From the IMG/VR virus record IMGVR_UViG_2563366972_000005, positions 1-26,528 of that record: a DNA stretch of 26,528 nt; one strand, written 5' to 3'. Below the pieces are notes generated by a model. It did no database searches. It was not told the DNA's origin and was given only the letters and a program-made list of their open reading frames with translations. The stretch comes from a virus. Its lineage: Duplodnaviria > Heunggongvirae > Uroviricota > Caudoviricetes. A program made the position numbers and the translations under genes. Of the stretch, positions 1 through 11,007 are shown one piece after another (the first letter of the stretch is position 1; the number at the start of each line of letters is the position of its first letter).

Positions 1-1020
1 CTACTTACTGACCACAAGCGGCAAATCCAGTGTTGGCGTGATTTTGGTTTTACGATCGTAAATCAACACCTGATTTTCTGTTTTGTGTCCACTGAAAATT
101 TGTTTGTCGCGACTGCTGCCTTCGTAATCTGAAATCCCTTTGGCTTTTATGTCATGGAAGTTGCACCCAAACGGAACGCCGGCTTTTTGCTCGGCTGCAC
201 GTTTAGCCTGATTCCACCAGTTGTTCAGCGTCTTGGCTATTACCTTCCCGCCTTTGGTTGTGTTGATCACATACTCGCATGTGCCGGAAGATACATTTCG
301 GGCTAACTGGATCGCCGTACGTAATCGCGGAGACCATTCCTTGATTTGTTTAGTGCCGGTCTTGTTTTGCTCAATGTAAATCCCTTTATCCATAATATCC
401 TGCCATTTCAGCTCGAGTACATCACCGAGCCTTGCCGCACAAAGATAGGATATCTCCATTGCAATACGTAACTGTGGAATTGCTTCCGCATATATTGCAG
501 CATACTGTTCATCGGTGATGTAAACAGTACGGGCTTTAAGTGTGAATTTTCTGACTCCTTTGCATGGATTATTTTTCACATACCCACGCTCATATCCCCA
601 TCCGTATACACGGCTCAGACTTGCCAGTTCATGGTTTGCCTGGGTCTTGCTCTCAAGTCCTCGCTTATCCATGAAAATTCTTACCTGTTCAATTTTTACA
701 TTATCAGTAAGCACTTTTCCGAATACTGCCAACAATGCCCTTTGATGTTGCCGATAATCTTTTTGGGTTCGGGGGGCCAGTTCTGTAAATGCAGGGGAGT
801 CCATAAACATGTGCCATAATTTAGCTACTGTCATTATGTTGTGGAGTTTTGCTTTTTCCAGCTCATAATTTTGCCAGACTTTAGCTACGCTGGTTTCCCG
901 CACTCTTCCGAGCCCTATAGTTCTTGTGCTTCCTTCGGGTTTCCATACGTAACTGTAACCATTCGATCTAACACGTGGTGGCAGTGCATTATCTTTTTTG
1001 TTTTTTCTTGGTCTTCCCAT
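1..1020 (-). CDS. int: Phage integrase, tyrosine recombinase family
   Basis: 339 aa ORF with basic N-terminus (MGRPRKNKK...) and C-terminal R...H..R...Y-type motifs (ARLGDVLELKWQDI, FHDIKAKG, GHKTENQVLIYDRK); overlaps the xis-like ORF as in lambdoid int-xis pairs. Stop codon sits at window position 1-3. Confidence 0.88.
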   Translation of the reverse strand: MGRPRKNKKDNALPPRVRSNGYSYVWKPEGSTRTIGLGRVRETSVAKVWQNYELEKAKLHNIMTVAKLWHMFMDSPAFTELAPRTQKDYRQHQRALLAVFGKVLTDNVKIEQVRIFMDKRGLESKTQANHELASLSRVYGWGYERGYVKNNPCKGVRKFTLKARTVYITDEQYAAIYAEAIPQLRIAMEISYLCAARLGDVLELKWQDIMDKGIYIEQNKTGTKQIKEWSPRLRTAIQLARNVSSGTCEYVINTTKGGKVIAKTLNNWWNQAKRAAEQKAGVPFGCNFHDIKAKGISDYEGSSRDKQIFSGHKTENQVLIYDRKTKITPTLDLPLVVSK

Positions 1021-1240
1021 TGTTCAGCGCCTCAAAATCGGGTTCAGCAGAAACCAGTTCAGATACTTTCGACATCGCTGTCAGCCCGTGCGGAACATCC
1101 CGGCGAAGAACTATTGGTTCGTTTTTAGGTCCGATTACAAACGGGATGCCGTGCAGCCTTAGCTGGTGTTGCTGTCTTGTGTATCGCTCGTATCTTGTGA
1201 TCTCTTGAATCTCTGCTGGCGATAGAGTTAATTCGTACAT
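989..1240 (-). CDS. xis: Excisionase-like small DNA-binding protein
   Basis: 83 aa ORF immediately upstream of int on the same strand with a 32 nt overlap; basic C-terminal tail. Assignment is by position and size. Confidence 0.55.
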   Translation of the reverse strand: MYELTLSPAEIQEITRYERYTRQQHQLRLHGIPFVIGPKNEPIVLRRDVPHGLTAMSKVSELVSAEPDFEALNNGKTKKKQKR

Positions 1241-1306: not shown

Positions 1307-3790
1307 TTAAAAATCAACCGGATTCGGGATCAGTTTTTGTATCGTGGCTGTAACGTATTTTGCCTGGTGACGGGCATCATCCAGCGCATTGTGGCGCACG
1401 CCTTCAAATGGAATAACTGTTCTGGCATCAAAGTCGATTGTTTTTCCCAGCTCAACGATTGTGCGTACATCGCGATCGTTGTAGTAGCGCCACGGGCAGG
1501 GGATGTCCAGACGTTCGTATGAGGTGCGCAAAATTGCGTTATCGAAAGTTGCACCATTACCCCATACCTGAACGAATTTTTCATCTGAGTATTCGTTGAT
1601 GAACTCCCGAAACCGCGAAAGGGCATCCTTCAGTTTTACCTGGTCTGTTAAAATGGCAGCTCTGGCTTCACTGGACTGCTTCAGCCACCATTCGATGGTT
1701 CCACCGTCAGGAACAGCCCCTGTATTCATTGCGTCAGTCAGACTGATAACGATATAAAATACTGGCCCGATTTCCCCTGTTTGTGGGTCGAAGAAAACCG
1801 CACCAATAACCACGATGGGCGCATTGGTGTTGGTTCCCATTGTTTCAAGGTCGATCATCAGGTGATACCACACTCTGCTGGTGGATGTGATAACGTGATG
1901 ACCGTTCACCGCAATTAAGGGATCTGCCGTCTCGCCAGTTTCATTATCGCTGGCGTGGTCCTGAGCGCTGCCAGCATTCTCCTTGTGTGGATGTTCAGCG
2001 CCTTCCATTTCCTTCGGATCATTTTCCTGAACTTCAACCTGATTCTCTTCATCGAATGTTTCCTGGTATGTTGCGTCGCCCATCACCGCGCCACAATCAG
2101 GGCAGTTGCCGTCGCCGGTCTGACCGCAGGCGGTGCAGACTTTTTCCGCTTCCTGTTGCGCTACTGGCTCAGGTTGTTTCGTTTCTGGCTCGTTTTGTAA
2201 CGCATTTGGGCTGTTTTGTTCCGCTTTCTGGTCGTTCTGTTCCGTTTCTTGCTGGTTCTGATTCACTGAATCGCGGGTTTCAATCCCCTTCACCCATTTC
2301 GGATCATTCGGGTCGCTAATCCCTGCAACAAATTCACCACGTGATACAGCAAGCAACTGATTGGCGTCAGGCTGGCTGATATTGGCTGCCTGCATAATTT
2401 TGTTTACTTCGTCAGCGGTAACTTTTACCGGCTCCGGTTGTGCGGTCGTGTCAGATGCACCAGTATTTTGTTGTGAACCTGAGTATGTACCGTTTTTGCG
2501 GGCAAAATATTCTTCTTTCGTGATTTCAGTAGCCCCTGTAGCCAACGCCTTATTCAGACCAGAAAGTTTGTTTGCACGACCATATTTTTCGCCATCCTTA
2601 TCGGTGAAGAGGAAGTAGAACGGCCCCTCACGCTCTACAGATGGTTCAGTTTCCAGCGCGCTTTCATTTTTTTGGGTATCAGATACTTCAGTTTCCACTG
2701 CGTCAGTTTCTGGTACTGGCGACGAGAGAGTATTAGTTGTGCCCTGATTTGTTCCTTCGTCATCTTCAAACACGCCCTTTGTAGCCAGGTATTCAGTGAT
2801 GTATTTGTTCAGTGCCATGGGATCTTTGTGAATGTCGATCGGACGTTCACGGACAAGGCCAAAAATAGTCTGGCGGCTGTAGCGAATCGCATCGGGTTGT
2901 TTGCGCATTGATGCGGAAATGCGCTTCCAGTCTTCGCGATCTTTGTCGATAACTTCATTTTTTGCCCAGCGATGGATGCTGCCGTCAATGTTTCCGGCAT
3001 TAATATCGCCAGGCCACAGAGCGTAGGCCAGTTCTTCATCCAGCGTTTTCCATGTCTGCTTGTATTCGCGACGAATGGCGGCAGTGGCGGGGTTGATTTT
3101 TCCTGCTGAGTTTTCAGTGTGCTGCCGGTTGACTCTGGCGCGGGCAAGATCAACAACAGACGTGTATTTTCCAGTCTCTTTGCGCTCTGCGTCCTGCCGT
3201 TTTTTCCAGTTACGTAATTCGGCCTGAATGTCCGGCCATTTTGCGCCAGGCTTACATTTATGTTTAACCCATCCGATAGCGAACAGTTTGCGTTCCGGAT
3301 ACATAGCGTTAATTTCTGGTGTTTTCATCAGTGCTTCAACGATATGCCCGTCGAATGTCGCCACGTCTTCCTGCAGTAACTCCTGTGCGCTAATCACCAT
3401 ATCAACGGTGATGTTTTCGCATGTACCGAACTTAACCAGGACTGCGTTCTGCACTTCAGGGGACAGCTTGTCAAAATTGACGTTCATCGGATCGGATTCT
3501 GGTTCGACCGGGACAAAAGAGGCTGACTCTTCATCCCAGCGGTTTTCCTGCATATATTCGGTATCCCATGAGTCGATAGCAGGGCGGGGCATGCCGGGTT
3601 TATCCTCGCAGACAAGAAATTTATAAGCGCAGTCCTGAGCAGCCGGATATTGCTCCAGGAATTGCCAGGTAAATTTGGCACGGGCGCGGCGTTCGTCACC
3701 GGCTTCAATGGCAGTGGCTACAGCGACTGCACCTTCTTCCTTTATTGCCTGTTCGTCCGGAATGGCGGCGCAAATAAAGACTTTACTCAT
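1307..3790 (-). CDS. Large early-region protein with C-terminal DEDDh-type 3'-5' exonuclease domain (of the kind often annotated exodeoxyribonuclease VIII in prophages)
   Basis: 827 aa ORF; C-terminal ~190 aa carry exonuclease motifs (MIDLETMG..., ...HNALDDA...); central CxxC...CxxC zinc-ribbon-like motif (CTACGQTGDGNCPDCG); acidic/Gln-rich low-complexity linker; start preceded by GAGG. Confidence 0.8.
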   Translation of the reverse strand: MSKVFICAAIPDEQAIKEEGAVAVATAIEAGDERRARAKFTWQFLEQYPAAQDCAYKFLVCEDKPGMPRPAIDSWDTEYMQENRWDEESASFVPVEPESDPMNVNFDKLSPEVQNAVLVKFGTCENITVDMVISAQELLQEDVATFDGHIVEALMKTPEINAMYPERKLFAIGWVKHKCKPGAKWPDIQAELRNWKKRQDAERKETGKYTSVVDLARARVNRQHTENSAGKINPATAAIRREYKQTWKTLDEELAYALWPGDINAGNIDGSIHRWAKNEVIDKDREDWKRISASMRKQPDAIRYSRQTIFGLVRERPIDIHKDPMALNKYITEYLATKGVFEDDEGTNQGTTNTLSSPVPETDAVETEVSDTQKNESALETEPSVEREGPFYFLFTDKDGEKYGRANKLSGLNKALATGATEITKEEYFARKNGTYSGSQQNTGASDTTAQPEPVKVTADEVNKIMQAANISQPDANQLLAVSRGEFVAGISDPNDPKWVKGIETRDSVNQNQQETEQNDQKAEQNSPNALQNEPETKQPEPVAQQEAEKVCTACGQTGDGNCPDCGAVMGDATYQETFDEENQVEVQENDPKEMEGAEHPHKENAGSAQDHASDNETGETADPLIAVNGHHVITSTSRVWYHLMIDLETMGTNTNAPIVVIGAVFFDPQTGEIGPVFYIVISLTDAMNTGAVPDGGTIEWWLKQSSEARAAILTDQVKLKDALSRFREFINEYSDEKFVQVWGNGATFDNAILRTSYERLDIPCPWRYYNDRDVRTIVELGKTIDFDARTVIPFEGVRHNALDDARHQAKYVTATIQKLIPNPVDF

Positions 3791-3883: not shown

Positions 3884-4075
3884 TTAAAGTCCTGCCGGTA
3901 TTTCGTTATTATTAGTGTGAGTAGCTTTATCTACCGGATAACAGTTACCGGGAATTTTTTGTTCTGCTGCGGCAGCCATGCATTCTTTCATTGAACCGTA
4001 TAAGCCAGTCACCAGCTCAAGAGATTCGCCGGAAACAAGATAAACTGTCAGAACGAGTGCAAATGTTGTATTCAT
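3884..4075 (-). CDS. Small hypothetical protein with hydrophobic N-terminus (signal-peptide-like)
   Basis: 63 aa ORF, stop/start abutting neighbouring ORFs in the leftward operon. Confidence 0.45.
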   Translation of the reverse strand: MNTTFALVLTVYLVSGESLELVTGLYGSMKECMAAAAEQKIPGNCYPVDKATHTNNNEIPAGL

Positions 4076-4356
4076 TGTTTATATCCTTTTAGCAGCAGGT
4101 CCAGACGAGCCAGCATTGAAGGAATGCATACTTCATTTAACAGGTCATGCTCGAGTTTTCTCTGCTTAATGGCGTCTTCAATAAATGTTTTGTCTCCAGT
4201 GATAACGCCAATTTCGAAACGAAGTTCAGACGTACTGGCATTGCATGATAACTTTTCCATTATCGCGTCCTCAACAATGAATTTTGTGATGCGGTGCCTG
4301 GTGCCTCCAGGTGACGTTAACCAGTTAACAATTAACGCCGGATACAGAGAACCCAC
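4072..4356 (-). CDS. Kil-like small protein (possible host cell-division inhibitor); likely true start is the ATG at 4260 (62 aa)
   Basis: Motif FEIGVITGDKTFIEDAI resembles the lambda Kil core as I remember it; internal ATG at 4260 is preceded by GAGGA with 7 nt spacing; the long ORF begins with GTG. Confidence 0.4.
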   Translation of the reverse strand: MGSLYPALIVNWLTSPGGTRHRITKFIVEDAIMEKLSCNASTSELRFEIGVITGDKTFIEDAIKQRKLEHDLLNEVCIPSMLARLDLLLKGYKQ

Positions 4357-4834
4357 CCATAAGAACCAATACGGAAGTCAACTGGCCTTTTTAACTGTTC
4401 CGCGTGCGCTGAGCCGCATTCACCGCATCACAAAATTCACTTTAAAAAGGGCGGGTATCACAAGGGAAAACAAAAAACGGATACCCGCCAAAAGGTAATC
4501 AACATGGGTTGTTGCAGCGGGGTTGTCACTTAAGCGTATGGTCAACCTGACAACCTGGTGTCCTCAACGGGGAAGGAATAACCCCGCCATACTTACCGCC
4601 GCGCCATTTCGCGGATTGCCACAACCGGAAGCGCACGGTCGACGAAAATTTAACGACAGGCTATCTATGAACCAGCTACCTCGCCGTGCGCTTTCGCGTT
4701 ATGGTCTGACTTTTCATGGAAATATCCTTTCAGTAAACTGTCAGTGCCGGATGCTCACCCGTGTCCGGCGCACGCACTCCACCTCACCCGTGGAGAACTC
4801 CTTAATTACCAACCTTAGCTTCGTTGGTTAGCTA

Positions 4835-5659: not shown

Positions 5660-6298
5660 TTAAATATCTTGTTGAATTTTAAAGCATACGCCCAATATGC
5701 AAGATAGATCATCCAGCATAATTGAAGGGTAGCGAGGATTCGTGGGGACTAAAAGAATATCCGGCCCTTCTATCTCCAGTTTACGAATGACAGGTGTTGT
5801 GGTCCCTTTGGGTAAGGCAAGGACAATATTTCCTGGTTGTACGGTTCGATCGGGATCAACAAAAACTGTTGAACCATTTGGGATGGAAACTCCCCCACCA
5901 GATGTTGACATACTGTCACTCTCTAGAACAACTGCAAAGGTATTGGCCGGGATTTCTCCGACAAGCTGCACACAAGAGGTTATTGAGGAATTTTTCATAT
6001 AATCACTCCAGCTTGCTGCCTGCTGAAGTGATAGTAGCGGAACCGTTTTTATCGGCGGTAAAGATAGATCAAGCGAATCACCTGTATTTAACTCTCCTCC
6101 ATTAAGAAGCCAATTTTCGTTTACTTTCAATATCTTTGCCAGTGAACTTATGTAACGCGAGGACGGCGCTCCTCCACCGTTCATCCATTGACTTACGGAG
6201 CCTTTTGATGCGCCAGTGGCATTGACAAGGTCTTTGCCTTTCAGGTTTAGCGCATGCATACGTTGGGTTATGCGTTCAGATATTGTTTGCTTGCTCAT
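5660..6298 (-). CDS. CI-like repressor (N-terminal HTH plus C-terminal S24/LexA-like autopeptidase domain)
   Basis: 212 aa; N-terminal HTH-like segment (RMHALNLKGKDLVNATGASKGSVSQW) and C-terminal S24-like segment; divergently oriented from the cro-like gene. Confidence 0.88.
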   Translation of the reverse strand: MSKQTISERITQRMHALNLKGKDLVNATGASKGSVSQWMNGGGAPSSRYISSLAKILKVNENWLLNGGELNTGDSLDLSLPPIKTVPLLSLQQAASWSDYMKNSSITSCVQLVGEIPANTFAVVLESDSMSTSGGGVSIPNGSTVFVDPDRTVQPGNIVLALPKGTTTPVIRKLEIEGPDILLVPTNPRYPSIMLDDLSCILGVCFKIQQDI

Positions 6299-6361
6299 GT
6301 TTTGATTTTAAAACACAGATGGTTTTGTTTCTTGACTTTCTTTGGTTTTGATTATTAAACT
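6297..6361. promoter_or_regulatory. oR-like operator/promoter region with three GTTTTGAT-containing repeats between the repressor and cro-like genes
   Basis: Repeats ATGTTTTGATTTTAAAACAC (overlapping the repressor start codon), GGTTTTGTTTCTTGAC and GGTTTTGATTATTAAAC read from sequence; TTGACT -35-like element within. Confidence 0.5.
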
Positions 6362-6389
6362 TTTGGCGTTCAGTTTTATGGAGCGACTC

Positions 6390-6620
6390 ATGAAAAAATC
6401 AGAAGTATTAGGCTATTTTGGCGGAGTTGTTAAAACAGCCGCAGCTCTAGGAACGTCAAAAACCACAGTCAGCATGTGGGGGGAAGAGGTTCCGTGGAAA
6501 TGGGCGTTGCTAATTCAGGCAGTCACTGCTGGGGCGCTCAAATATGAGTTACACATACCGACGGTTGTCATTCCCGGTTCTGATCATAATCCGCCTTCTA
6601 ACCAAGGGGGGGATTCATGA
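6390..6620 (+). CDS. Cro/YdaS-like small HTH regulator
   Basis: 76 aa from ATG at 6390 (GGAG 5 nt upstream); HTH-like segment VVKTAAALGTSKTTVSMW; first gene rightward of the repressor; stop overlaps next start (ATGA). Confidence 0.72.
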   Translation: MKKSEVLGYFGGVVKTAAALGTSKTTVSMWGEEVPWKWALLIQAVTAGALKYELHIPTVVIPGSDHNPPSNQGGDS

Positions 6621-7042
6621 AAATCAAGCATGAACACATCCGCATGGCGATGAATGCCTGGGCGCGTCCTGATGGCGAAAAAGTTCCAGCAGCTGGAATA
6701 ACCCAGGCTTATTTTGAGTTGGGTATGACGTTTCCTGAACTGTATGACGACAGCCATCCGGAAGCCCTGGCTCGCAATACCCAGAAAATTTTCCGCTGGG
6801 TAGAGAAAGACACCCCTGATGCAGTTGAAAAAATTCAGGCGTTGTTACCAGCGATCGAAAAGGCAATGCCACCTTTGCTGGTGGCCAGAATGCGCAGCCA
6901 CAGTTCAGCTTATTTTCGGGACCTGGTGGAGACGCGGGAGCGATTGGTGAGAGACGCTGATGATTTTGTCGCAGTGGCAATCGCCGGCTTCAATCAGATG
7001 AACCGTGGTGGTCCGGCAGGAAATGCTGTGGCGGTACATTGA
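6617..7042 (+). CDS. YdaT-like protein (CII-like functional equivalent in Rac/CP-933P-type immunity regions)
   Basis: 141 aa starting MKIKHEHI, matching the YdaT N-terminus as I remember it; position directly after the cro/ydaS-like gene; strong AAGGGGGGG Shine-Dalgarno. Confidence 0.65.
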   Translation: MKIKHEHIRMAMNAWARPDGEKVPAAGITQAYFELGMTFPELYDDSHPEALARNTQKIFRWVEKDTPDAVEKIQALLPAIEKAMPPLLVARMRSHSSAYFRDLVETRERLVRDADDFVAVAIAGFNQMNRGGPAGNAVAVH

Positions 7043-7113
7043 CTGACAATATTCATACCGGATCGCTTCCGGAAACTCGTGAGTAAAAAGATTCGGTATC
7101 AGAAGAGGTGAGT

Positions 7114-8154
7114 ATGGCCAACGCCTGGCTCAGATTATGGCATGACATGCCAAATGACCCTAAGTGGCGAACAATTTCAAGGGTGTCAGGACAGCCGATT
7201 GCAACAGTGATGGCGGTGTATATCCACCTTCTGGTTAGCGCGTCACGAAATGTCACGACATGTCACGGCGTGTCACTACGGGGTCACATTGATGTCACGA
7301 CGGAAGATTTAGCAAGTGCGCTTGATGTGACGGAAGACGTAATTGATTCAATTTTGCAAGCAATGCAGGGGCGGGTGCTTGATGGAGATTTAATCACTGG
7401 ATGGGAAAAACGCCAGGTACTGAAAGAGGACAACGGTAACGTTTCTCAAACCGCGAAATCCCCGGCAGAGCGCAAGAGAGCGCAGCGTGAGAGGGAAAAA
7501 TTACGAAAACAGAATGAGGAATGTCACGACGAGTCACGCATATGTCACGACATGTCACGACGAGTCACGACAGATACAGATACAGATAAAGAATTAAACC
7601 CCACACATAGCGCGCGCGTGCGCGAGATCGCTCCGACCAGTGAGTCGAATGGCGCGCCGTTGCAGGCAGCGGAACCTGATTACCTGGAAGGTCTGAGCGA
7701 ACCCATCGGAAAATTTCCGATGACCGACGGCTGGAATCCGTCGCCCGATTTCCGACAACGGGCTGCACTGTGGGGAGTGGCTCTGCCGGAGCCGGAATTT
7801 ACACCTGCTGAACTTGCCGCCTTCCGGGACTACTGGGCAGCGGAGGGGAAAGTTTTCACGCAGGTTCAGTGGGAGCAGAAATTCGCCCGTCACGTAAATC
7901 ACGTCAGGGCGCAGGTTAAACCAGTCAGCAAGGGGGTGAGCCATGCAGCAACGCCAGGTGGCACCGCATCACGGGCAGTTCAGGAAATTCGGGCAGCACG
8001 TGAGCAGTGGGAACGTGAAAACGGATTTATCAGCGACGGAAACGGCGTGGAAGCTGTGGGAACTCATGGGGGAGGTTTATTCGAACCGCTGGACTCAGAA
8101 GAACGGGGCCGCACCTTCGAAGCTCTGGATTGCACAGATTGGCGCGATGACTGA
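7114..8154 (+). CDS. Replication initiation protein, O-like, with embedded iteron origin
   Basis: 347 aa from ATG 7114 (GAGG 5 nt upstream); two clusters of 10-bp-phased GTCACG iterons inside the coding sequence; immediately upstream of a lambda-P-like gene. Confidence 0.7.
   Translation: MANAWLRLWHDMPNDPKWRTISRVSGQPIATVMAVYIHLLVSASRNVTTCHGVSLRGHIDVTTEDLASALDVTEDVIDSILQAMQGRVLDGDLITGWEKRQVLKEDNGNVSQTAKSPAERKRAQREREKLRKQNEECHDESRICHDMSRRVTTDTDTDKELNPTHSARVREIAPTSESNGAPLQAAEPDYLEGLSEPIGKFPMTDGWNPSPDFRQRAALWGVALPEPEFTPAELAAFRDYWAAEGKVFTQVQWEQKFARHVNHVRAQVKPVSKGVSHAATPGGTASRAVQEIRAAREQWERENGFISDGNGVEAVGTHGGGLFEPLDSEERGRTFEALDCTDWRDD
7241..7300. repeat. Iteron cluster 1: six GTCAC(G) repeats at ~10-11 bp spacing inside the O-like gene
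   Basis: Direct repeats cGTCACGaaa tGTCACGaca tGTCACGgcg tGTCACtacg ggGTCACatt gatGTCACGa read from sequence. Confidence 0.7.
7521..7600. repeat. Iteron cluster 2 (five (T/A)GTCACGAC repeats) followed by a CAGATA x3 tandem and an AT-rich tract; putative origin of replication
   Basis: Repeats at 7523, 7533, 7544, 7554, 7564 with 10-11 bp phasing, then cagatacagatacagataaagaattaaacc; mirrors the lambda ori architecture (iterons plus AT-rich region inside O). Confidence 0.65.
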
Positions 8155-8608
8155 GCAGCAAATCCGGCAGGTCTGCCGCCAGTGCATGGAGCGTTGTCGG
8201 GCGGGTGAAACATGGCCTCCTGACCTGGCAGAGTTTGTGGCGTTGATTTCGGAAAGTGGGGCAAATCCGTTTGGTTTGACTGTGGATGCCGTGATGGAGG
8301 AGTACCGCCGCTGGCGCAACGAGTCCTGGCGATACGACGGAAGCGATAAATACCCGTGGTCTCAGCCTGTGCTGTATCACATTTGCCTCGAGATGCGTTC
8401 AAAGGGGATTGAGCGCCAGATGACCGAAGGGGAGTTAAAACGACTTGCAGAACGGCAACTGGCGAAATGGGCAAAGCATGTTGGTGACGGCTTCAGTGTT
8501 CCGCCCGTACGGCGGCAACTGGCTGCACCAGAACGCCCGTCGGGGCCAACTCCAATTGAGTTGCTGAAACAGGAATATGAACGCCGGAAAGCGGCTGGGT
8601 TTGTTTGA
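7943..8608 (+). CDS. Replication protein P-like (DnaB helicase loader)
   Basis: 221 aa; segments ...[12 protein letters not shown]... and ...[17 protein letters not shown]... parallel lambda P (...LPSPGQFVAWC..., ...ESYPWKSNAHYWL...); AGGGGG Shine-Dalgarno 6 nt before ATG 7943. Start uncertain: in-frame ATGs also at 8066 and 8147. Confidence 0.75.
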
Positions 8609-9830: not shown

Positions 9831-10056
9831 CGCGAGTGCGTGTAACTTTTGATGTCATTCCCGTAGAAACACCGGACAAATTTTCGCTGACAGGTCATGC
9901 TGAAGGTATAAATCTGCAGATTATGGACAATTACGGATATCCGGCAAGAGCCGGAAAAAGCATGCCGCCTTTAATTCTCAGTGGAAGATGGACTTGATTA
10001 TACTCATTGCATTGTCAGAAATAGTTATCCATTAAAGGCTGGCTATTCCAAACAGG

Positions 10057-10084
10057 ATGTTGATTACAAAAATGTAATCAACAT
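10057..10084. promoter_or_regulatory. Perfect 12-bp inverted repeat ATGTTGATTACA-N4-TGTAATCAACAT upstream of the ModA-like gene; candidate operator
   Basis: Read directly from sequence; lies ~25 bp upstream of a TATAAT hexamer (10111-10116) in a 420 bp AT-rich intergenic region. Confidence 0.4.
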
Positions 10085-10248
10085 GTAAGGTTTATACTCT
10101 TCAACATGCGTATAATTTTCCTTATTTTGTTAACTTTAAATAACAAGCTATGCACGAGGTAAAGTCGGATAAGTCTATCTGGATATAATATATATTATTT
10201 GTAGTGTTTATAACTTTATTTCATGATAACCAATAAAAGGAGTTTTTT

Positions 10249-11007
10249 ATGAGGAACATAATGGCTGGTTTTTTAATATTCCTGTCTTCTGCTGCTTATG
10301 CTGATATCAATCTGTATGGTCCTGGTGGCCCGCATACAGCCTTGCTTGATGCAGCCAAACTTTACACCAAAAAAACAGGTATTATAGTGAACGTTCATTA
10401 CGGCCCACAGAACAAATGGAATGAAGATGCAAAAAAAAATGCAGATATCTTGTTTGGCGCATCAGAACAATCTGCTCTGGCTATCATTCGGGACCATAAA
10501 GACAGCTTCAGTGAAAAAGATATTCAGCCTCTTTATCTGCGAAAAAGTATTTTACTGGTAAAGAAAGGTAATCCTAAAAATATCCGGAGTATTGACGACC
10601 TGACCAGACCCGGGATTGGCATAATTGTTAATGATGGTGGTGGTACCAGTAATACATCAGGCACTGGCGTCTGGGAAGATATTGCCGGACGTAAAGGGAA
10701 TATAGAAACTGTCGCCGCAATCCGAAAAAATATTATTTTATATGCGCCCAATAGCGGAACTGCACGTAAGGCTCTTGAGAATCAGCCTGAAGCAGATGTC
10801 TGGATAACCTGGGCTGACTGGGCAGCCAGTAATCCAGGAATTGGTGATGTCGTGGAAATAGCGCCAGACTACGTGATATGGCGTGATATGAACATTACAG
10901 TACGTCAGGATGCAAATGATGAAACCCGTCGATTTGCAGAATGGCTACAAACCGATGAAGCGGCGCCTGCATTCAAAAAATATGGCTGGACCAGGAAAGG
11001 CACTTGA
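10249..11007 (+). CDS. Solitary periplasmic substrate-binding protein, ModA/WtpA-like (type 2 PBP fold), with signal peptide
   Basis: 252 aa; N-terminal signal peptide (MAGFLIFLSSAAYA); ModA-like landmarks (INLYGPGG...ALLDAAKLYTKKTGIIVNVHYG, ADILFGASEQ, C-terminal FKKYGWTRKG versus ModA FKRYGFT); AAAGGAG Shine-Dalgarno; AT-rich; no permease or ATPase partner nearby. Confidence 0.7.
   Translation: MRNIMAGFLIFLSSAAYADINLYGPGGPHTALLDAAKLYTKKTGIIVNVHYGPQNKWNEDAKKNADILFGASEQSALAIIRDHKDSFSEKDIQPLYLRKSILLVKKGNPKNIRSIDDLTRPGIGIIVNDGGGTSNTSGTGVWEDIAGRKGNIETVAAIRKNIILYAPNSGTARKALENQPEADVWITWADWAASNPGIGDVVEIAPDYVIWRDMNITVRQDANDETRRFAEWLQTDEAAPAFKKYGWTRKGT

Follow-up and report, generated by a model that had tools for sequence, protein, structure and literature searches.

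YdfE/ExoO of lambdoid prophages as a predicted RecE paralogue that carries a DexA-type nuclease head and has no neighbouring annealase gene

Introduction

The closest described relative of the protein studied here is RecE of the Rac prophage (exodeoxyribonuclease VIII), which works with RecT and is encoded upstream of xis and int. In RecE, a large N-terminal scaffold is joined through a flexible linker to a C-terminal nuclease head of the PD-(D/E)XK class with 5'-3' polarity (RecE residues 564-866; DUF3799-like in Pfam). In linear-linear recombineering, full-length RecE performs better than its isolated nuclease domain. The N-terminal scaffold of RecE is, however, without an assigned role (PMC11611040).

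Other nucleases to be considered are those of the Rv2179c/DexA family. DexA, the exonuclease A of bacteriophage T4, is a stand-alone protein of 227 aa with solved structures (8KEL and 8KEN). Its stand-alone homologue of Escherichia coli, EcD ('HREX'; HAK9828821.1), is reported to degrade the DNA of T4 and to protect cells from this phage (PMC12153337). The founding member of the corresponding Pfam family is Rv2179c of Mycobacterium tuberculosis, which is described as a single-domain bacterial RNA exonuclease without phage context and is set apart by this description from the protein reported here.

The gene itself belongs to a known family, ydfE/exoO, which is already catalogued and widespread. 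Its K-12 representative, ydfE (b1577), is a pseudogene of the Qin prophage, and in the uropathogenic strain UTI89 exoO is listed beside dicB (PMC6206680). In the literature on ydfE/exoO, HREX, the Rv2179c-like family and DEDDh nucleases of lambdoid prophages, no functional study of the protein was found.

Genomic context and distribution

The window analysed, a stretch of 26,528 nucleotides of the IMG/VR record IMGVR_UViG_2563366972_000005 (Caudoviricetes), contains on its minus strand an open reading frame running from ATG to the stop codon and encoding a protein of 827 aa (Table 1). The full-length match of this ORF with PHROG 2082 (aa 1-827 on profile positions 1-823 of 823), together with the dN/dS pattern given below, indicates that it is not a product of chance. 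The original prediction had placed the gene in the recE or exo-bet slot, and it does belong to the early-left operon and has the cI-like repressor gene on one side and xis/int on the other, a slot that it shares with Rac recE. The gene order dicB-ydfD-exo-xis-int is that of Qin in K-12, and the dicF-region sRNA locus belongs to the same operon. Among 80 related viral loci, ydfD was a neighbour of the gene in 78 and dicB in 77. A scan for promoters and terminators around the exonuclease gene did not give more sites than shuffled sequence.

YdfE of K-12 shares 86% identity with aa 1-256 of the ORF and has the same neighbourhood (dicB-ydfD-ydfE-(IS2)-int). However, in K-12 an IS2 element cuts the protein short at about residue 256, and both the linker and the nuclease are missing, whereas the copy of the window is complete. 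By these comparisons, the gene of the window is the intact orthologue of the Qin pseudogene. Of 5426 complete E. coli genomes, 3462 carried a full-length copy, and the gene is among the commonest prophage genes of this species; the search gave about 10,600 places in E. coli. The annotation of the nearest chromosomal copy (H26) gives a frameshift, and many database entries of the family are partial; the reading frame is intact in the plaque-forming or inducible phages Evi, mEp460, Tritos and HannyBb.

Table 1. Location of the exonuclease gene, its predicted domains and its neighbours in the window.
Feature	Position	Strand	Evidence
Whole ORF, YdfE/ExoO-type exonuclease	1307..3790	-	PHROG 2082; 86% identity to K-12 ydfE fragment, aa 1-256
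N-terminal alpha/beta domain (aa 1-100) and helical domain (aa 105-210)	3131..3790 (aa 1-220)	-	
Second helical domain (aa 240-345), homologous to RecE aa ~278-367	2756..3073	-	Block-mean pLDDT 92-97; hhalign
Acidic disordered linker 1 (aa 346-385)	2636..2755	-	pLDDT <50; net charge -7; dN/dS 0.5-1.1
Small beta-beta-alpha domain (aa 386-435)	2486..2635	-	pLDDT ~95; dN/dS 0.07-0.14
Module common to Rac RecE (aa 475-625), ending at the nuclease-head junction	1916..2368	-	73% aa identity, BLASTP E=7e-66
Zinc-ribbon-like CxxC-x7-CxxC (aa 552-566)	2093..2137	-	Cysteine motif; conserved in Rac RecE
Strongly acidic linker 2 (aa 571-640)	1871..2080	-	Net charge -14
Predicted DEDDh 3'-5' exonuclease domain, Rv2179c/DexA family (aa 641-827)	1310..1870	-	PF16473; D647, E649, D750, H800, D805
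Excisionase gene (xis), directly downstream of the exonuclease gene	989..1240	-	PHROG 1266
Tyrosine integrase gene, last of the early-left operon and at the prophage end	1..1020	-	ORF; orthologous locus annotated as tyrosine-type recombinase
ydfD homologue, directly upstream of the exonuclease gene	3884-4075	-	Same gene order as K-12 Qin
dicB homologue, upstream of ydfD	4072-4356	-	Same gene order as K-12 Qin

C-terminal nuclease domain

The C-terminal region had been read as a DnaQ-like nuclease of the DEDDh class and not as a RecE or lambda Exo fold, and the domain searches bore this out. The Pfam family PF16473 (Rv2179c-like 3'-5' exoribonuclease domain) matched aa 643-815 over profile positions 2-175 of 177 (E=6e-68; 228.4 bits, cut-off 27). 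The nuclease head was matched by PF00929 (RNase_T) as well, and the Pfam search of the ORF gave no PD-(D/E)XK match. All five catalytic residues are present, as D647, E649, D750, H800 and D805 align with D7, E9, D119, H186 and D191 of T4 DexA, and the HNALDDA motif corresponds to aa 800-806. The DexA structures were the sole sequence matches in the PDB (E=7e-9), with 31% identity over about 190 residues. DexA and EcD are stand-alone proteins, whereas in the window this domain is the C-terminal quarter of a much larger protein. In other lambdoid phages this operon position is taken by stand-alone 190-aa versions of the DexA-type head, which indicates that the head can work without the scaffold.

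N-terminal scaffold and relation to RecE

The original prediction left the N-terminal region unassigned. In fact, this region is covered by YdfE_N (PF27430) and YdfE_C (PF27432), two newer Pfam families that are also carried by close relatives of the ORF, and it is homologous to the N-terminus of RecE. Comparison of the profile of aa ~51-345 with Rac RecE aa 46-410 gave an hhalign probability of 99.95% (E=2.6e-38, 320 columns). The NCBIfam model PRK09709 matched only aa 219-627, with a score over this aligned part of 274 bits versus an equivalog cut-off of 1269. Modelling of the whole protein with AlphaFold from the single sequence produced a mean pLDDT of 36 and the model was unusable; the three N-terminal domains were modelled with confidence but did not match known folds. 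The small beta-beta-alpha domain is also found in relatives bearing other C-terminal heads.

Closer to the nuclease, aa 475-625, which include the zinc ribbon and acidic linker, share 73% identity with RecE 471-614, and part of this module has about 86% nucleotide identity to the recE gene of Rac-SA53 (megablast, hit H25). Altogether, about three quarters of the ORF are RecE-like. BLASTP of the full ORF against the full 1048-aa RecE of Rac-SA53 gave no significant alignment to the C-terminal nuclease region. By the homology of both the N-terminal part and the module, the ORF is a paralogue of RecE in which the nuclease head has been exchanged, and not an unrelated occupant of the slot. Rac RecE and this protein have in common the plan of large scaffold, flexible linker and C-terminal nuclease, and they differ in the head, which in RecE is a PD-(D/E)XK nuclease acting 5'-3' and in the ORF is of the DEDDh 3'-5' type.

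A zinc ribbon and an acidic linker had also been proposed. The four cysteines are indeed present (C552-x2-C555-x7-C563-x2-C566), although Pfam zinc-ribbon models gave only sub-threshold matches (E 0.09-0.76), and three acidic stretches were found: linker 1 (net charge -7), aa 511-548 (-6) and linker 2 (-14). The zinc ribbon was nevertheless rejected as a core feature of the family and is lineage-specific, since of 26 divergent relatives checked 25 lack it.

Comparison with the orthologues of phages Evi and Tritos gave dN/dS values of 0.05-0.19 in the folded domains and of 0.5-1.1 in the linkers. For linker 2, the comparison with Tritos and that between Evi and Tritos both gave a dN/dS of about 0.9, and the value against Evi was undefined (dS 0). 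The folded domains are under purifying selection and the linkers are near-neutral.

Partner genes and alternative heads

In the Rac prophage recE has recT as its partner, whereas the exonuclease gene of the window is directly followed by xis. The claim that no RecT- or Bet-like annealase gene follows was sustained by every search: tblastn of Rac RecT against the whole window gave no match, the annealase PHROGs did not match any early ORF of the window at PHROG sensitivity, and neither RecT, Bet, lambda Exo, Gam nor Sak queries detected anything in the 80 related viral loci. Clear full-length homology to characterized RecE with a partner annealase had been named as the finding that would overturn the original prediction; homology to RecE was found, but it ends at the nuclease head, and no annealase was detected.

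Inspection of relatives showed that the same scaffold carries four alternative C-termini: the DexA type, the PD-(D/E)XK head of the RecE type and two other types without annotation. The latter correspond to aa 455-734 of P0182 and to aa ~490-702 of P0125. None of these relatives combines a RecE-type with a DexA-type head. In three divergent proteins (P0256, P0242 and P0122) the Pfam family Exonuc_VIII, corresponding to the RecE N-terminus, is joined to the Rv2179c-like domain, and no annealase was found next to their genes. Xis/int come directly after the DexA-head genes of the window, of phages Evi and Tritos and of these three relatives, while recT follows the gene in both RecE-head relatives checked (P0193 and P0129). 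These results suggest that the partner gene tracks the head, PD-(D/E)XK heads going with RecT and DexA-type heads without an annealase.

The idea, suggested by a motif, that a third type of head (phrog_2489/7838, as in P0182) might be a Rad52/Sak-like annealase was unsupported. Pfam, a PDB profile search and PHROGs provided no significant support for it, and hhalign against Sak of ul36 gave a probability of 0.13%.

Discussion

Recombination, anti-defence and RNA processing had been named in the original prediction as possible functions. The most probable role of the protein, to which we give a probability of about 0.55 on the basis of sequence and gene order, is that of a 3'-5' exonuclease which attacks DNA ends in early lytic growth, with no annealase and on a RecE-type scaffold. 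Judging from gene order, the gene would be transcribed with the early-left (pL-type) operon upon induction or infection. The tethered head would then, like DexA, take nucleotides off free DNA 3' ends, and this removal would trim or degrade linear DNA ends and gaps in early phage DNA metabolism. The N-terminal scaffold may give the same targeting, oligomerization or partner binding as in RecE, and the enzyme could act alone or alongside host recombination functions. As its polarity is the reverse of that of RecE and a partner of the RecT, Bet or Sak type was not found, the classical single-strand-annealing pathway of an exonuclease plus an annealase is not expected here. 3' tails are the normal substrate of recombination and would be destroyed by a 3'-5' exonuclease, so a role in favour of recombination is less obvious.

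Since Pfam describes Rv2179c as an exoribonuclease, sequence alone does not distinguish a DNA from an RNA substrate. The protein could process or degrade transcripts or sRNAs from their 3' ends, or it could serve anti-defence by breaking down nucleotide-based immune signals. The name of the best Pfam match, a weak match to oligoribonuclease (E=0.0035) and the operon shared with the dicF-region sRNA locus are in favour of this. However, the sequence search of solved structures led only to a DNA exonuclease, DexA, the scaffold is common to the DNA enzyme RecE, the genomic context has nothing specific to RNA and no match to known anti-defence proteins was obtained, so that we regard activity on RNA as improbable. 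That the gene is a decaying recE remnant, a fusion without current function that persists as a fossil and passive passenger of defective prophages, is disfavoured and very improbable indeed. The IS2-truncated fragment of K-12, the frameshifted H26 copy and the many partial entries would fit with it, but the frame is intact in the window and in four phages, strong purifying selection acts on every folded domain while linkers are near-neutral, the catalytic residues are all intact and the same architecture recurs in the divergent lineages of P0256, P0242 and P0122.

Somewhat less improbable than activity on RNA, although still unlikely, is a function in defence or in phage-phage competition, in which the DexA-type head would degrade the DNA of superinfecting phages, for instance the 5hmC-modified DNA of T-even phages. 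EcD is a precedent for this, the head is homologous to DexA, and prophage-borne genes as frequent as this one are typically of advantage to the lysogen; nevertheless, the EcD claim comes from a single paper. The features by which 5hmC-only homologues were selected in that paper (PMC12153337) were not seen in a simple alignment of three sequences. Of the 5hmC-recognition residues reported for DexA, W152 aligns with Y770 and D169 provisionally with F787, which is flanked by D786 and D788 and lies in an indel loop of uncertain alignment. D90 of DexA, which forms the tetramer and is Ala in EcD, is kept as D722. In addition, expression in the lysogen would not be expected from a repressor-controlled early-left operon, and PADLOC gave only a generic DEDDh match (E=2.7e-5). 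A search of viral contigs with the 20-mer EcD primers of that paper's supplement gave one exact match, which was unrelated.

These results correct a widespread annotation, as the gene is often labelled 'exodeoxyribonuclease VIII' despite the opposite polarity class of its nuclease and the lack of a RecT partner. They also present the N-terminal region of RecE as a conserved and selected scaffold that is naturally combined with several heads. Tentatively, the RecE/YdfE scaffold could be a modular delivery platform on which lambdoid phages swap DNA-processing heads, the partner changing with the head, although we hold this to be distinctly less probable than the proposed activity on DNA ends. 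If true, the DexA-head form would represent an undescribed, annealase-independent route of DNA-end processing in temperate phages of E. coli, and the natural head swaps would make the role of the RecE N-terminus directly accessible to experiment.

Architecture of the exonuclease

The 827-codon ORF of the originally described protein is uninterrupted, and PHROG 2082 matches its product over the full length. Comparison with the orthologues of phages Evi and Tritos gave dN/dS values of 0.05-0.19 in all folded domains and of 0.5-1.1, indicating near-neutral evolution, in the linkers. The full-length PHROG match and the low dN/dS in the folded domains confirm that this ORF is a real gene. Its C-terminal part (aa 643-815) contains the Rv2179c-like 3'-5' exonuclease domain of Pfam (PF16473; E=6e-68; 228 bits against a cut-off of 27), and residues D647, E649, D750, H800 and D805 align with the catalytic residues of the T4 exonuclease DexA, the last two within the HNALDDA motif. 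Both observations bear out the DEDDh exonuclease that this motif had suggested. A search by sequence found no solved structures other than those of T4 DexA (8KEL and 8KEN; E=7e-9), which is 31% identical to the head, as we call the C-terminal nuclease, over ~190 residues. The DexA tetramer residue D90 is kept as D722, W152 aligns with Y770, and D169 with F787, the latter in a loop of uncertain alignment.

The predicted zinc ribbon and acidic linkers were also found. The ribbon has four cysteines (C552-x2-C555-x7-C563-x2-C566) and gave only sub-threshold matches to the Pfam zinc-ribbon models, and three stretches are strongly acidic (see table). Apart from Rac RecE, only the E. coli cluster has the ribbon; since it is missing from 25 of 26 divergent relatives, it was ruled out as a core feature of the family and is regarded as an accessory of the linker module.

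The N-terminal region had been described as unassigned. However, it is not an orphan, being homologous to the RecE N-terminus and covered in newer Pfam releases by YdfE_N (PF27430) and YdfE_C (PF27432), the RecE N-terminus itself being Exonuc_VIII (PF06630). An exhaustive search over 1.84 billion representative proteins gave just 198 matches at E<=0.001, and a profile built from 69 N-terminal relatives found in this way aligned with RecE aa 46-410 with an hhalign probability of 99.95% (E=2.6e-38). The NCBIfam RecE model aligned just to aa 219-627, well under its cut-off. By BLASTP, aa 475-625, which contain the zinc ribbon and the second acidic linker, are 73% identical to residues 471-614 of Rac-SA53 RecE (1048 aa), part of this stretch showing ~86% nucleotide identity to recE by megablast; the similarity stops at the junction with the head. 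The AlphaFold2 model obtained with the alignment of relatives was confident (mean pLDDT 84.7), its N-terminal domains being separated by disordered linkers. No structural relatives of these domains were found in PDB at E<1 with Foldseek, nor in BFVD at E<=0.001. The RecE N-terminal domain is likewise without known function according to a 2023 review (PMC11611040).

Synonymous divergence between modules of the gene differs more than 10-fold. In the comparison with Tritos, dS ranged from ~0 for the zinc-ribbon segment and ~0.12 for the linker next to it (linker 2) up to 1.2 for the head; in that with Evi, aa 101-220 gave 0.77 and the head 0.05. Such unevenness points to frequent intragenic mosaic recombination.

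Features of the exonuclease, its operon and the heads of its relatives (P numbers label relative proteins)
Feature	Position	Strand	Remarks
Tyrosine integrase	1-1020	minus	
Excisionase	989-1240	minus	
Exonuclease (ydfE/exoO-type)	1307..3790	minus	
ydfD homologue	3884-4075	minus	
dicB homologue	4072-4356	minus	
cI-like repressor	5660-6298	minus	
Alpha/beta domain	aa 1-100		AlphaFold2 model
Helical domain 1	aa ~105-210		AlphaFold2 model
Helical domain 2	aa ~245-345		AlphaFold2 model
Small beta-beta-alpha domain	aa ~390-435		AlphaFold2 model
Acidic linker stretch	aa 346-385		net charge -7
Acidic linker stretch	aa 511-548		net charge -6
Acidic linker stretch	aa 571-640		net charge -14
DexA/Rv2179c-type head			P0121, P0122, P0142, P0242, P0251, P0256
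RecE-type PD-(D/E)XK head			P0129, P0178, P0193, P0210, P0244, P0259, P0266, P0176
Third head type			PHROG 2489/7838; no Pfam match; P0128, P0130, P0131, P0138, P0150, P0166, P0171, P0182
Fourth head type			PHROG 26058; no Pfam match; P0125, P0192

Operon context and distribution

Leftwards on the minus strand, the cI-like repressor is followed by five small ORFs (including the dicB and ydfD homologues), the exonuclease, the excisionase and the integrase; the genes to the right are cro-, cII-, O- and P-like, followed in the list by a DUF968/YdfU-like gene, rusA and Q. The K-12 prophage Qin has the same organisation (dicA-ydfABC-dicF-dicB-ydfD-ydfE-IS2-intQ), and its ydfE pseudogene product is 86% identical to the exonuclease over aa 1-256. 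This shared order and identity identify the gene as an intact ydfE orthologue, whereas the K-12 copy is truncated by IS2 at ~aa 256. In UPEC UTI89 the ydfE-type gene is named exoO (PMC6206680).

Copies covering at least 80% of the gene are present in 3462 of 5426 complete E. coli genomes, annotated as 'exonuclease', '3'-5' exonuclease' or '3'-5' exoribonuclease domain-containing protein'. Among sequenced phages, Evi, mEp460, Tritos, HannyBb and the PPompW group carry the gene as well, and there it is often annotated as 'exodeoxyribonuclease VIII', a misleading label. The exonuclease is a further member of a catalogued and very common family (PHROG 2082; YdfE_N and YdfE_C plus Rv2179c-like; PGAP name '3'-5' exonuclease').

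Some neighbouring regions showed features of their own. The dicB ORF encodes 94 aa from a GTG start, of which PHROG 1251 (DicB, 62 aa) covers only residues 33-94, and the true start is probably the internal ATG. The ydfC-dicB intergenic region (~4440-4500, minus strand, within 4260-4834) is 89% identical to K-12, with a divergent, indel-bearing segment between near-identical flanks in place of the 53-nt DicF sRNA core; Rfam detected no DicF there even at E<=1, and the region may hold a variant DicF allele or have lost the sRNA. At 10001-11000 the GC content falls to 0.40 from ~0.50-0.54 on both sides; the dip spans an ORF (10249-11007, plus strand, 252 aa, PHROG 11834, no assigned function) which looks like an inserted moron separating the replication genes from the ydfU/rusA/Q block.

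Exchange of heads and partner genes

Four kinds of C-terminus occur on the common RecE-like scaffold among the long relatives. In P0256, P0242 and P0122, Pfam Exonuc_VIII and Rv2179c-like are joined in one protein, so the swap is seen with the canonical RecE N-terminus too. Which gene lies next door depends on the head type. Downstream of the RecE-head genes of P0193 and P0129 lies recT (46 and 39% identity of the products to Rac RecT, the former being Pfam RecT), and xis/int directly follow the DexA-head genes of the window, Evi, Tritos, P0256, P0242 and P0122. As had been predicted, no RecT/Bet-like annealase follows the exonuclease: no annealase PHROG was matched among the early ORFs of the window, nor RecT in its six frames. 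RecT, lambda Bet, lambda Exo, Gam, ul36 Sak and the RecE nuclease were not found by tblastn in 80 related IMG/VR loci, which as close relatives are no independent lineages. Other lambdoid phages have stand-alone heads of 190 aa at the corresponding place in the operon, the PhiR47_1 copy being 63% identical.

The third head is a conserved C-terminal domain of ~270 aa on a YdfE-type scaffold (e.g., 6001-8205 of locus L009, where a Sipho_Gp157 gene follows); PHROG 7838 is labelled 'exonuclease', and the domain has no sequence match in Pfam or PDB. Its invariant motif KKSLTDA..K.LS.LGF.AD is similar to the signature of Rad52/Sak annealases; it was exactly this motif that hhalign placed on ul36 Sak, but at a probability of 0.13%. 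The fourth head, the C-terminal ~200 aa of P0125 and P0192 (5001-7013 of loci L017 and L018), matched nothing in Pfam or in the PHROG annotation; downstream of its genes come an ORF of 67 aa and xis/int, in this order.

Possible role of the exonuclease

In the exonuclease, a flexible acidic tether connects a scaffold of RecE type to an intact DexA-family DEDDh site; the protein lacks an annealase partner and is under purifying selection. Its polarity is opposite to that of RecE and, as there is also no annealase, the classical exonuclease-plus-annealase pathway is impossible for it. We propose that it would be expressed with the early-left operon, that the tethered head would trim or degrade free 3' DNA ends in early phage DNA metabolism independently of an annealase, and that the scaffold may provide the same targeting or assembly function as in RecE. 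We give this whole explanation a probability of about 0.55; the molecular identity alone is highly probable, and far less confidence attaches to the biological role.

The stand-alone E. coli DexA homologue EcD, termed 'HREX', is reported to digest 5hmC-containing T4 DNA and to protect cells (PMC12153337), and the exonuclease could be a defence or competition nuclease of this kind. We regard this as rather unlikely: the features by which that paper picked such homologues, at the DexA positions W152, D169 and D90 compared above, are not evident in the head of the exonuclease, and PADLOC gave a generic DEDDh match only. An RNA 3'-end exonuclease or an anti-defence enzyme seems less likely still, and a functionless remnant, disfavoured by the dN/dS data, is very improbable.

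In the searched literature, most subscription journals being outside the search, there was no explicit description of a head-swapped RecE without RecT and no functional study of the exonuclease, an absence that is only weak evidence for that reason. The finding of a head-swapped RecE is real, yet largely ordinary. What interest it retains, besides the misleading label, is that head swaps found in nature give access to the N-terminal region of RecE, so far unexplained.
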